Origin: Escherichia coli
GTDB taxonomy: Bacteria; Pseudomonadota; Gammaproteobacteria; Enterobacterales; Enterobacteriaceae
DNA: 64,000 nt
Direction: 5' to 3' (one strand)
Assembly: GCF_003334785.1 (NCBI RefSeq)
Contig: NZ_QOWV01000015.1
Numbering within the stretch: position 1 is the stretch's first letter; every line of letters begins with the position of its first letter. Shown piece by piece: positions 36,806-53,038 of the stretch. The position numbers were made by a program, and so were the translations under genes. The notes beneath the pieces were generated by a model that did no database searches, was not told where the DNA came from, and saw only the letters and a program-made list of their open reading frames with translations.

Positions 36806-37040
36806 AACATTTAAGCTGATGACCACCGCGCTTTTTATTGACCATTTTGCACGCAAACTGGAAAACCTGGCGTCGTCATCTATTCTTAAAGGGCAAGGCA
36901 ACTAAGCCTGCATTAATGCCAACTTTTAGCGCACGGCTCTCTCCCAAGAGCCATTTCCCTGGACCGAATACAGGAATCGTGTTCGGTCTCTTTTTATCTG
37001 TTAAAAGCCAGAAGCATTTCCTTCGCTGACTTTATAGTCA
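36766..37040 (-). ncRNA. ryeA: RyeA (SraC) antisense sRNA overlapping SdsR
   Basis: Known sense/antisense pair at this locus between yebY and pphA; boundaries approximate. Confidence 0.4.
36896..36995 (+). ncRNA. sdsR: SdsR (RyeB) sigma-S-dependent Hfq-binding sRNA
   Basis: Recalled sequence gcaaggcaactaagcctgcattaatgcc...ccatttccctggaccgaatacaggaatcgtgttcggtctcttttt with 3' terminator hairpin plus T-run on plus strand; 5' end approximate. Confidence 0.6.
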
Positions 37041-48451: not shown

Positions 48452-49823
48452 ATGCCCTGGATCGTGGCTGAGTGATACGTAAACCACTGACACAGGCAGC
48501 AATCACTGCCAGAATAGCCGCAGCCATCAGCGAGACGTGTGTACCATTATCTCCAAACTGATTTAGCATCAGCGCCACCAGCGCCGCGCCGCTACTCTGA
48601 CCCAGTAGACGAGCCGTTCCTAACATGCCACTGGCTCCACCGCTACGTTCGCGAGGCGCGGAGGTAATAATGGTGTGGTTATTGGGTGACTGGAATAAGC
48701 CAAATCCAGCACCACATAAGATCATCGGCCAGATAATATTGATATCCGCAGGTGACGCGGGCAGCAGAACCAGGGAAAAAAGCCCCGCAGCCATGATGAA
48801 CAACCCTAAAGCCCCCAGCAATCCTGCATGTACGCGTTCAATCAAATAGCCTGCCAGCGGAGCCATCACCATCGTTGCTAACGGCCACGGTGTCAGAAGT
48901 AAACCTGTTTCGACTTCACTACGCCCGAGCACGGTTTGCAGGTAAAAGGGCAGGGAAACCATTGCCAGCATTTGTGCGCAGAAAGAGCAAACAGATGTGC
49001 AAATAGAAAGTGAAAACAGCGGGATACGCAGTAAATCCACCGGTAGCAGCGGTACGGGAAGAGAAAGCTGGCGGCGAATAAAGAAAATACCAACAACAAC
49101 CATTACCACCAGTTCCGCAGCAATTAACGTCAGCGATTGCCCCTGAGCGAAACCACTCAACGCAGTGATAAGCAGGCCGAAGGTTAACGCGTTCATCACG
49201 GCGCTGGGCAGGTCGAAACGGGGTTTACTGGCGCGAGAACCATTGGGTGGCAGAAAACGCATCGCCAGAAGCAGGGCGATAATACCTAACGGTACGTTGA
49301 TTAAAAATAACCATTTCCAGGATGCGATGGAGAGGATTGCTGCAGCAATTGTCGGCCCGGCAGCAGAAGAGACGGCAACAATAAACGAGTTTATGCCCAT
49401 CCCTCTACCCAGAAAACGTTGTGGATAGATCAGGCGGATAAGTGCGGTATTAACGCTCATCAACGCTGCACCGCCGAAACCTTGTATGACACGCGCAAGG
49501 GTGAGCATTTGCAGCGAATCAGAAAGGGCGCAGAACAGTGAAGACAACAGAAAAACGACCAGACCGCATTTATAAATACGTCGATAGCCAAACATATCGC
49601 CCAGAAACGAAAACGAGAGCAGGGAGATGACAATGGCGATTTGATAGGCGTTCACTACCCAGATGGAACTGGCTGGCGTGGCATGAAGGTCCGTGGCGAT
49701 TGTTGGCAGGGCGACGTTGGCGATTGCGCCGTCAAGGACGGCCATCGAAATACCAATCACAATGGTTAATATCGCACCGTATCGCTGGGGCAATGGCAGG
49801 CCGTCGGCCTGAACTTTTGGCAT
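48450..49823 (-). CDS. yebQ: YebQ, MFS-family transporter
   Basis: Track ORF trimmed to MPKVQADGLPLPQRYGAILTIVIG... (457 aa); 14-TM MFS-like. Confidence 0.85.
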   Translation of the reverse strand: MPKVQADGLPLPQRYGAILTIVIGISMAVLDGAIANVALPTIATDLHATPASSIWVVNAYQIAIVISLLSFSFLGDMFGYRRIYKCGLVVFLLSSLFCALSDSLQMLTLARVIQGFGGAALMSVNTALIRLIYPQRFLGRGMGINSFIVAVSSAAGPTIAAAILSIASWKWLFLINVPLGIIALLLAMRFLPPNGSRASKPRFDLPSAVMNALTFGLLITALSGFAQGQSLTLIAAELVVMVVVGIFFIRRQLSLPVPLLPVDLLRIPLFSLSICTSVCSFCAQMLAMVSLPFYLQTVLGRSEVETGLLLTPWPLATMVMAPLAGYLIERVHAGLLGALGLFIMAAGLFSLVLLPASPADINIIWPMILCGAGFGLFQSPNNHTIITSAPRERSGGASGMLGTARLLGQSSGAALVALMLNQFGDNGTHVSLMAAAILAVIAACVSGLRITQPRSRA

Positions 49824-49999
49824 AGGAATTTTATATCTTTGGTGAATAATCAACAGGGGTATGATTCTAGCACTGATATTCACGGTGGATGTCGCAGAAT
49901 TGTAACTAACCGGCAAAAGATGGATTGCGACCACCCTGGTGCGAAATTATAATAAAAAACAGTTCTGATTTTTATAAAACACTCGCAATGAGGTGATAA

Positions 50000-50791
50000 A
50001 TGGCTAACGCAGATCTGGATAAACAGCCTGATTCTGTATCTTCCGTGCTAAAAGTTTTTGGCATTTTGCAGGCGCTGGGTGAAGAGCGCGAAATAGGGAT
50101 AACCGAGCTGTCGCAGCGCGTCATGATGTCAAAAAGCACCGTTTATCGCTTTTTACAGACCATGAAAACCTTAGGTTATGTGGCGCAGGAAGGGGAGTCG
50201 GAGAAATATTCCCTGACCCTGAAATTGTTTGAACTGGGCGCTCGCGCGTTACAAAACGTCGATTTAATTCGTAGCGCAGATATCCAGATGCGTGAGCTCT
50301 CCCGCCTGACCAAAGAAACTATCCACCTCGGCGCACTGGACGAAGACAGTATTGTTTACATTCACAAAATTGACTCTATGTACAATTTGCGCATGTATTC
50401 ACGGATTGGGCGTCGTAATCCGCTGTACAGCACCGCGATTGGTAAGGTACTGCTGGCATGGCGCGATCGCGATGAAGTGAAGCAAATTCTTGAGGGCGTG
50501 GAGTATAAACGCAGTACCGAGCGGACCATCACCAGTACAGAAGCGTTATTACCCGTTCTGGACCAGGTGCGCGAGCAGGGGTATGGCGAAGATAATGAAG
50601 AGCAGGAAGAAGGGCTGCGATGCATTGCGGTACCGGTATTTGATCGCTTTGGCGTGGTCATTGCCGGTTTGAGCATCTCCTTCCCGACGTTGCGTTTCTC
50701 TGAAGAGCGTTTACAGGAATATGTCGCAATGTTGCATACCGCAGCGCGCAAAATTTCTGCCCAAATGGGTTATCACGACTATCCGTTCTGA
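50000..50791 (+). CDS. kdgR: KdgR, IclR-family transcriptional repressor
   Basis: 263-aa ORF with IclR HTH ITELSQRVMMSKSTVYRFLQTM. Confidence 0.9.
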   Translation: MANADLDKQPDSVSSVLKVFGILQALGEEREIGITELSQRVMMSKSTVYRFLQTMKTLGYVAQEGESEKYSLTLKLFELGARALQNVDLIRSADIQMRELSRLTKETIHLGALDEDSIVYIHKIDSMYNLRMYSRIGRRNPLYSTAIGKVLLAWRDRDEVKQILEGVEYKRSTERTITSTEALLPVLDQVREQGYGEDNEEQEEGLRCIAVPVFDRFGVVIAGLSISFPTLRFSEERLQEYVAMLHTAARKISAQMGYHDYPF

Positions 50792-50800
50792 TGAGAGTAA

Positions 50801-50838
50801 GAACCTGTCGGAATATCAAACAGACAGGTTCTTTATTT
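50801..50838 (+). terminator. intrinsic terminator after kdgR
   Basis: gaacctgtcggaatatcaaacagacaggttc plus T-rich tail. Confidence 0.7.
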
Positions 50839-50934
50839 AGCATGAGAAAAATAAAGTTGAAGGTGGCGTTATATTAAACGCGCTTGCTATAAGAGTATTT
50901 TACTCAGGAGTGAGAATCTGGTTATTTATTGCCC

Positions 50935-51174
50935 TTAACCATTATCGACCACGATATTGCTTTTGCGTAACAGCGGGCAATCTGTTATCCCCAAAAAACC
51001 ACTTTTAGTGTGCAAGTATTGTACCGTGCTGGTGCCTCTGGCAGTCAGATAGGTACATTGCAAACCTAATCCTGCGGCATTCTCTTTGCTTCCAATCAAA
51101 ACGCCATATCCGCTGAGTAATAATCCTATCCAGACCAGTGCTATCAGCATAACTGTGCGAATGATGAATCGCAT
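50935..51174 (-). CDS. yobH: YobH, small secreted/membrane protein
   Basis: 79-aa ORF MRFIIRTVMLIALVWIGLLLSGYGV... with hydrophobic N-terminus. Confidence 0.7.
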   Translation of the reverse strand: MRFIIRTVMLIALVWIGLLLSGYGVLIGSKENAAGLGLQCTYLTARGTSTVQYLHTKSGFLGITDCPLLRKSNIVVDNG

Positions 51175-51276
51175 TACAACCTCTTCTCTTTTTATGTTCG
51201 CTTAATCGTAGCGGCAATATGCGCTGAAGCAAGCGACTCATTCCGAAAAAGCACGAATATCGACATAGTTAGGCGC

Positions 51277-51303
51277 TGTTTAACTAACGCATGCTAGTTT
51301 AAT
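51277..51303 (+). promoter_or_regulatory. putative PhoP box and -10 element of mgrB promoter
   Basis: TGTTTA-actaa-cgcatg (half-site 2 degenerate) then TTTAAT about 30 bp upstream of the mgrB start; recall-based. Confidence 0.35.
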
Positions 51304-51332
51304 GACATAAGGTAGGTGAAACGGAGATTGGA

Positions 51333-51476
51333 GTGAAAAAGTTTCGATGGGTCGTTCTGGTTGTCGTGGTGTTGGCTTGCTTGCTGCTTTGGGCGCAGGT
51401 ATTCAACATGATGTGCGATCAGGATGTACAATTTTTCAGCGGAATTTGTGCCATTAACCAGTTTATCCCGTGGTGA
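51333..51476 (+). CDS. mgrB: MgrB, 47-aa membrane peptide, negative feedback regulator of PhoQ
   Basis: GTG-start [50 protein letters not shown] read by eye; below the track's 60-aa cutoff (track shows only a spurious minus-strand ORF). Confidence 0.8.
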
Positions 51477-51550
51477 TATCATTTTTTCAGCACTAGATTT
51501 TCTTCCTCTCCAGCAGTGGTAGAATAGCGCCTCTACTCAGAGGTGGTGAA

Positions 51551-51838
51551 ATGAACGAAGTTGTAAATTCAGGCGTGATGAACATTGCGTCTTTGGTTGT
51601 ATCGGTGGTGGTTCTTCTTATCGGGCTCATCTTGTGGTTTTTTATCAATCGTGCCAGTTCACGGACTAACGAACAGATTGAACTGCTTGAGGCGTTGCTG
51701 GATCAGCAAAAACGTCAAAATGCACTGTTACGTCGTTTGTGCGAAGCAAACGAACCAGAGAAAGCAGATAAAAAGACCGTTGAGAGTCAAAAATCGGTTG
51801 AAGACGAAGATATTATTCGTCTGGTCGCCGAACGATAA
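51551..51838 (+). CDS. yebO: YebO, small membrane protein
   Basis: 95-aa ORF MNEVVNSGVMNIASLVVSVVVLLIGLILWFF... Confidence 0.7.
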   Translation: MNEVVNSGVMNIASLVVSVVVLLIGLILWFFINRASSRTNEQIELLEALLDQQKRQNALLRRLCEANEPEKADKKTVESQKSVEDEDIIRLVAER

Positions 51839-52507
51839 TCCTTCCTCAATCTTGAGTAACCCCGTCGTTGAAGGGTTACTCAATTCATCCTGATTATACG
51901 CACTGTCATGGTGCAACTGCTTCAAATTAAAACTCTGGTCTGACTTCAAATAATTATCATATTATTTATTTGCGTAACGGGATATCAGAAAAAGATATTT
52001 ACCCCATTAATTTATTAGGATGTTTACATCGGATTTGTGATTAAGCGTGGTATTATTTATTAGCGAAACGTTTCTCTCTTGATTTTTTTGCTCATTCATC
52101 AATTTTTCTTATTTTAAATTTACAATCCCTTTGGGGATTGACTTCTCTTTAGGGTAATTAATAGCCGTTAACTGACTGTTTTATGAGAAAAAGTGATATA
52201 ACTTTTTATTCATTGCATAGCAAAAAATGTGATATTGCACGCACTATGTAATAACTTCTCCCACTGGCCTGGAACAACTGAACTTATTGAACTATGTTAG
52301 AAAATACGCCAGTTTAAGTATCTGCCTGAACTGGCAAGGTTAAGCACAATGATATATCGGCGCGTATTCCGTTGCATAAGTGTGCAAAAAAAGTGGAAGA
52401 CGTATCGAGATTTGTGCGTCTGATCGAGACATGTTTAAAAATGGCTTGCCATAATTAACGTTGTATGTGATAACAGATTTCGGGTTAAACGAGGTACAGT
52501 TCTGTTT

Positions 52508-52651
52508 ATGTGTGGCATTTTCAGTAAAGAAGTCCTGAGTAAACACGTTGACGTTGAATACCGCTTCTCTGCCGAGCCTTATATTGGTGCCTCATGCAGT
52601 AATGTGTCAGTTTTATCTATGTTATGCCTGCGGGCGAAGAAAACAATCTAA
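52508..52651 (+). CDS. yobF: YobF, 47-aa small stress-induced protein
   Basis: [53 protein letters not shown] read by eye; 12 bp upstream of cspC; below track cutoff. Confidence 0.7.
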
Positions 52652-52663
52652 GGAATTTTTCAA

Positions 52664-52873
52664 ATGGCAAAGATTAAAGGTCAGGTTAAGTGGTTCAACG
52701 AGTCTAAAGGTTTTGGCTTCATTACTCCGGCTGATGGCAGCAAAGATGTGTTCGTACACTTCTCCGCTATCCAGGGTAATGGCTTCAAAACTCTGGCTGA
52801 AGGTCAGAACGTTGAGTTCGAAATTCAGGACGGCCAGAAAGGTCCGGCAGCTGTTAACGTAACAGCTATCTGA
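52664..52873 (+). CDS. cspC: cold-shock-domain protein CspC
   Basis: 69-aa [40 protein letters not shown]... with RNP1 motif. Confidence 0.95.
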
Positions 52874-52919
52874 TCGAATCCACTGATCTGAAGTGTGAAT
52901 ACGCTTCAATCTCGCTATA

Positions 52920-52947
52920 AAGCCTCGTCGAATGCGAGGCTTTTTAC
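52920..52947 (+). terminator. intrinsic terminator after cspC
   Basis: aagcctcgtcgaatgcgaggcttttt. Confidence 0.8.
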
Positions 52948-53038
52948 TATGCTTTATCTTCGCTCCTGGCGTTCGGATATTTGCCCGCCGCGTGATTCGC
53001 GTTACACTTGCGGCCTTTAGTATCCTGCCGGAGTTGTC

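Follow-up and report, generated by a model that had tools for sequence, protein, structure and literature searches.

The window analysed here, a stretch of 64,000 nucleotides (nt) of Escherichia coli DNA, carries the small gene mgrB between yobH, which lies on the opposite strand, and yebO. At the default cutoff of 60 amino acids (aa), a 62-aa minus-strand open reading frame (ORF) was the only one listed over positions 51270-51476. When the cutoff was lowered to 20 aa, the plus-strand ORF was listed too, with GTG 51333 as its first possible start after an in-frame stop. The two overlapping frames are the following:

51333-51476, plus strand: mgrB coding sequence, GTG start, 47 codons, TGA stop at 51474-51476
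51294-51482, minus strand: spurious antisense ORF of 62 aa with an ATG start, in the same codon register as mgrB on the opposite strand

The preliminary description of this DNA had read the plus strand from GTG 51333 as the 47-aa MgrB and had attributed its absence from the ORF track to the 60-aa cutoff. The lowered cutoff bore out the second proposal, and the first was borne out by the translation itself, by identity to the K-12 annotation, by protein family models and by a comparison of 80 species. A 501-nt query around mgrB matched K-12 and many other strains with 100% identity; the stretch occurred in 5424 of the 5426 complete E. coli genomes and was annotated yobH / mgrB / yebO throughout. 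The mgrB coding sequence annotated in a K-12 record maps exactly onto positions 51333-51476. NC_000913.3 lists the gene as b1826, "PhoQ kinase inhibitor", on the complementary strand (1908623-1908766), the window being the reverse complement of this region. Furthermore, the plus-strand peptide matched the NCBIfam equivalog NF007635 over residues 1-47 of 47 with 89.9 bits (cutoff, 40) and Pfam family MgrB (PF13998) with an E value of 2.8e-18. We thus consider it practically certain that 51333-51476 (plus strand) is E. coli mgrB (formerly yobG, b1826), encoding a PhoP-driven, GTG-started 47-aa repressor of PhoQ, and that the minus-strand ORF is no gene. No observation spoke against this identification.

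Across positions 49599-53599 (4001 nt), the sole difference from NC_000913.3 was found at position 51133, where the plus strand of the window has G and MG1655 has T. This change is synonymous and affects codon 14 (Val) of yobH. Since a single base differed in 4001 nt, the source of the window is a close relative of MG1655 and not an exact copy of it.

To decide which strand codes, we compared 80 loci taken from genome contigs of different enterobacterial species (Citrobacter, Klebsiella, Enterobacter, Kluyvera, Kosakonia, Buttiauxella, Cedecea, and others); counts are given below either for these 80 other species or for 81 sequences. The plus frame of mgrB was intact in all 80 species. The encoded protein was 47 aa long in 78 of them and 48 aa long in the remaining 2, and the plus-frame pN/pS ratio was 0.185 (about 0.19), indicating purifying selection. 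Column entropy at plus-frame codon positions 1, 2, and 3 was 0.51, 0.24, and 1.07, respectively; with its maximum at position 3, variation falls on the wobble position of the plus frame.

The same alignment bears on the reading in which the roles are reversed, with the minus-strand 62-aa ORF (51294-51482) as the true gene and the plus-strand 47-aa ORF as an incidental one. The antisense ORF does begin with ATG, and no other ORF over this DNA reaches 60 aa. However, internal stops interrupt it in 65 of 81 sequences, its ATG is kept in only 15 of 81, and its pN/pS ratio is 1.14. Codon boundaries coincide in the two frames, and the third position of each falls on the first position of the other; the variation of the antisense frame therefore peaks at its own first codon position, the plus-frame wobble position, and not at its third. 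In addition, the 62-aa peptide had no NCBIfam match, and the ORF was absent from the annotation of all records inspected. We give this reading virtually no probability, as the comparative data refute it. The two outcomes that the preliminary description had named as speaking against mgrB were both looked for: the plus frame turned out to be conserved among enterobacteria, and conservation did not favour the minus frame. Its judgment that the antisense ORF is spurious is in good agreement with the stop, ATG, and pN/pS data.

A related possibility is that both strands code and that mgrB overlaps an antisense gene for a small protein specific to E. coli. Lineage-restricted overlapping genes exist, and 15 sequences besides E. 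coli have the antisense frame open. Nevertheless, this frame shows no selection signal beyond that imposed by mgrB, its start triplet is not kept even in close relatives, and one Escherichia sp. sequence of our set (L002) already has an internal stop in it. No minus-strand promoter-like site was detected within 51100-51900, which, like the missing family match, argues against this possibility, and we regard it as highly improbable. We conclude that the 62-aa minus-strand ORF is not a gene and merely comes with mgrB; it is open in E. coli only by chance, opposite a stretch kept for mgrB.

The start codon of mgrB was GTG in 79 of the 80 species, TTG in one, and ATG in none. This retention of GTG suggests that a weak initiation codon is selected for in mgrB, a feedback inhibitor. 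We also considered whether translation could start at another codon, be it one further upstream in frame or a GTG or ATG inside the gene, given that some database entries are N-terminally extended (58-64 aa) and that in-frame GTG codons occur at residues 12-13. Several observations speak against this: no possible start precedes GTG 51333 after the in-frame stop, the conserved GTG is preceded 6 nt upstream by a conserved GGAG, and the N-terminal KKxRW motif is under purifying selection, with K2 and K3 being functionally important. Moreover, a longer N terminus would have no room after the transcription start predicted at about 51306. The chance that mgrB translation begins at another codon is, in our view, very small, and we retain GTG 51333 as its start.

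We next turned to the mgrB promoter and leader and aligned the 110 nt upstream of the mgrB start from 81 sequences, anchoring half-site counts on the 3' half-site. Four conserved islands stood out in otherwise variable DNA. They are given here together with two features deduced by comparison with the promoter of yobG, the Salmonella mgrB gene:

51240-51249: island 1, ATTCC(G/T)AAAA, about 90-100% conserved in the 81 sequences
51266-51282, plus strand: island 2, promoter-proximal PhoP box, a direct repeat TAGTTA-ggcgc-TGTTTA in the place of a -35 element
51292-51300, plus strand: island 3, extended -10 element of the form TG-n-TAnnnT, with TG at 51292-51293, one base, and TAGTTT at 51295-51300
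51323-51326, plus strand: island 4, Shine-Dalgarno sequence GGAG, 6 nt before the GTG, in columns about 90-100% conserved in the 81 sequences
51305-51307, plus strand: predicted transcription start, by analogy with Salmonella yobG, leaving a 5' untranslated region of about 26-28 nt
51233-51251, minus strand: probable second PhoP box in reverse orientation, CTTTTTCGGAATGAGTCGC, containing island 1

The PhoP box at 51266-51282 has two mismatches to KGTTTA-N5-KGTTTA. Among the 81 sequences, its consensus was (C/T)AGTTA-N5-(T/G)GTTTA: GTTTA of the 3' half was invariant (81/81), and the 5' half was nearly so, with G3 in 79, T4 in 81, T5 in 77, and A6 in 81 sequences. Of the 81 sequences, 80 had the TG of the extended -10 element. 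Within the hexamer, A2 and T6 were present in all 81 and T1 in 73, and in every one of the 81 sequences the hexamer started exactly 12 nt after the PhoP box. A direct PhoP box about 12 nt upstream of a -10 element, the arrangement that defines architectures I and II of PhoP-activated promoters, in which the box overlaps the -35 region (Zwir et al. 2012), is thus found here with the box at 51266-51282 and TAGTTT at 51295-51300.

The preliminary description had pointed to a TGTTTA half-site about 12 bp upstream of a TTTAAT -10 element and had seen in this a PhoP-activated promoter architecture. It was right about the kind of promoter, as shown by conservation and by the match to the Salmonella yobG promoter, and its details need correction. 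TGTTTA is present at 51277-51282 and is not a lone half-site, being the proximal half of a full PhoP box. TTTAAT likewise exists, at 51298-51303, at a spacing of 15 nt and with its last three columns poorly conserved; the -10 element is instead the conserved TAGTTT, which lies 3 nt upstream of it and exactly 12 nt from the box.

Motif scans alone did not single out this promoter. A search of the window for the PhoP-box consensus with at most two mismatches returned 28 matches including the mgrB site, with about 15 expected; given the 27 other matches, the PhoP-box motif by itself is no evidence. The preliminary description had also proposed a position weight matrix (PWM) scan of the promoter. 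With a PWM built from 10 published PhoP boxes, yobG and yoaE being left out, the real box reached only 4.9 bits. Among about 128,000 positions it ranked 288th, and three sites in the intergenic region scored higher, so that the proposed scan would not have been decisive. The top match in the yobH-mgrB intergenic region was CTTTTTATGTTCGCTTAAT at 51188-51206 (plus strand; 10.3 bits), which adjoins the yobH ribosome-binding site. Similarly, a generic sigma-70 consensus scan did not pick up the mgrB promoter because this promoter has no -35 element; the only two promoter-like sites it reported lie within the coding region (51403-51432 and 51454-51482). As the motif scores are weak, the promoter assignment rests on conservation and on the Salmonella experiments and not on motif strength. 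Overall, phylogenetic footprinting allowed a weak PhoP box to be placed with confidence where a motif scan alone fails.

Two further one-mismatch matches to the PhoP-box consensus were seen elsewhere in the window. The first, TGTTTAactccCGTTTA at 58318-58334 (plus strand), is located between manX and yoaE, with TATAGG following after 12 nt and the yoaE start (58514) after about 180 nt. Its sequence is the same as that of the PhoP box footprinted in front of Shigella flexneri yoaE (PMC5775216), and it is therefore a second, known PhoP target in the window. The other, TGTTTAgtgtaTTTTTA at 54801-54817 (minus strand), lies between yobD and the mntP leader, about 165-180 nt upstream of the start (54638) of a Mn2+ riboswitch match, and may be a chance match. 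The riboswitch itself (yybP-ykoY, RF00080; 54542-54638, minus strand) was found in the mntP leader with 41.6 bits and E = 7.6e-10; this is just under the Rfam gathering score of 45, and the element is therefore missing from a gathering-threshold scan of the window.

In Salmonella enterica, yobG (mgrB) has an "architecture II" PhoP-activated promoter (Zwir et al. 2012, PMC3335776). Its direct PhoP box, ACAGTTACTCCTGGTTTAA, has been footprinted 12 nt from the -10 element TAATTT, and its start has been mapped by S1 analysis 5 nt from the -10 element and 26 nt from the start codon; a second footprinted box, GTTTTTAGGAATGATTCAC, lies in reverse orientation (PMC3335776). The E. coli mgrB promoter shares with it a weak -10 element of the form TAnnnT, preceded at 12 nt by a direct PhoP box, and, by prediction, a short leader of about 26 nt; a probable counterpart of the reverse box lies further upstream. 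The two differ in the half-sites (TAGTTA/TGTTTA in E. coli and CAGTTA/GGTTTA in Salmonella) and in the -10 hexamer (TAGTTT and TAATTT, respectively). The probable upstream box of E. coli is more degenerate than that of Salmonella: on the minus strand, 51233-51251 shares 15 of 19 bases with the reverse box footprinted in Salmonella, and its half-sites TTTTTC and GAGTCG are poor as a motif. From this likeness we hypothesize that 51233-51251 is probably a second PhoP box in E. coli.

By the same comparison, we infer that E. coli mgrB is transcribed from about 51305-51307. The RegulonDB start of mgrB, which we take to be MG1655 position 1,908,792, corresponds to position 51307 of the window. Phosphorylated PhoP would bind the direct-repeat box at 51266-51282, standing in for a -35 element, and this box together with the extended -10 element TGcTAGTTT (51292-51300) would give a short-leader mRNA, which would be translated from GTG 51333 via the GGAG ribosome-binding site. 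For PhoP binding itself we rely on the literature, in which PmgrB has served as a PhoP reporter (PMC2789325) and as a positive control in electrophoretic mobility shift assays (EMSA) (PMC8355897).

The neighbourhood of mgrB was kept as well, with the order kdgR, yobH (opposite strand), mgrB, and yebO found in 79-80 of the 80 species: yebO lay downstream on the same strand in all 80 loci, and both yobH on the opposite strand and kdgR lay upstream in 79. The mgrB-yebO spacer (51477-51550, plus strand) measured 72-78 nt in 75 of 80 species. It contains a conserved extended -10 element, TGgTAGAAT (51517-51525), and a GAGGTGG ribosome-binding site for yebO, and the conserved -10 element implies that yebO has its own promoter. 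No canonical terminator was found after mgrB, either by a terminator scan or by RNA folding of 51465-51560 (z = -0.73). Because no intrinsic terminator separates the genes and their gap is held at 72-78 nt, mgrB transcripts could read through into yebO, so that YebO, an uncharacterised single-pass membrane protein, would be partly co-expressed under PhoP and could be a partner in PhoQ signalling. We consider this idea speculative and rather unlikely to be correct; if it were, read-through would add to transcription from the conserved extended -10 promoter of yebO.

Further downstream, the RefSeq K-12 annotation has no small gene (yobI) between yebO and yobF. An Rfam cspA-thermoregulator match (52488-52948, plus strand; 135.5 bits) spans yobF and the start of the adjacent cold-shock gene, which is called cspE in the PGAP record used, whereas RefSeq K-12 names it cspC. 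At gathering threshold, the window also contained the known small RNAs MicL (1157-1464, plus strand), naRNA4 (15753-15828, plus strand), and ES036 (5400-5442, minus strand), as well as SraC/RyeA with SdsR/RyeB on the opposite strand (36855-36999, both strands).

The protein encoded at 51333-51476 has the features of MgrB: a length of 47 aa, an N-terminal Lys-Lys, one hydrophobic transmembrane stretch with W20, and a tail with the conserved C28 and C39. An alignment of 11 diverse MgrB orthologues contained 20 invariant positions. The protein carries K2, K3, W20, F24, C28, D31, F34, G37, C39, and W47, which are all the residues found important by mutagenesis (PMC8404706), and it is identical to the K-12 MgrB used in the experiments of PMC2789325, PMC8404706, and PMC10576120. 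Its membrane topology and its inhibition of PhoQ are taken from the literature. PhoP induces MgrB, which in turn binds PhoQ and represses it, resulting in negative feedback (PMC2789325). It contacts PhoQ along the transmembrane helices and close to the interface of membrane and periplasm, and it is displaced by cationic antimicrobial peptides (PMC10576120); the feedback function is experimentally established (PMC2789325; PMC10576120). The 47-aa product of the window would likewise cross the inner membrane once, with its Lys-Lys N terminus in the cytoplasm, W20 in the helix, and C28 and C39 in the periplasmic tail, and by binding and repressing the PhoQ sensor kinase it would close the negative feedback loop on PhoQ/PhoP.

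Loss of mgrB leads to colistin resistance in Klebsiella and to trimethoprim tolerance in E. coli. Four E. coli database entries (P0051, P0053, P0055, and P0056) were frameshifted mgrB variants, in which the MgrB core is followed by another frame. They probably represent loss-of-function alleles, natural or selected, like those associated with resistance to colistin or trimethoprim.

The mgrB gene described here is an already known one and brings no new biology, and the value of the finding is that of a quality-control point only: real small genes of medical relevance, such as mgrB, are lost from view at a 60-aa ORF cutoff, which can show a meaningless antisense ORF in their place.

The closest known system is MgrB of E. 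coli K-12 (YobG, b1826; NP_416340.1 / WP_000714550.1), the PhoQ kinase inhibitor, to which the gene is identical in both DNA and protein. Its locus is likewise the same in coordinates, strand relationship, and neighbours (yobH, yebO, and kdgR), with no difference inside the gene. SafA, MzrA, and UgtS resemble MgrB in that they are short, cross the inner membrane once, and modulate a histidine kinase by contacting it directly, but they have no sequence relationship to MgrB. Inhibition of PhoQ by MgrB depends on the transmembrane helix of MgrB itself (W20). SafA, in contrast, is an activator of PhoQ, and in SafA and MzrA the transmembrane segment is mainly an anchor (PMC8404706).
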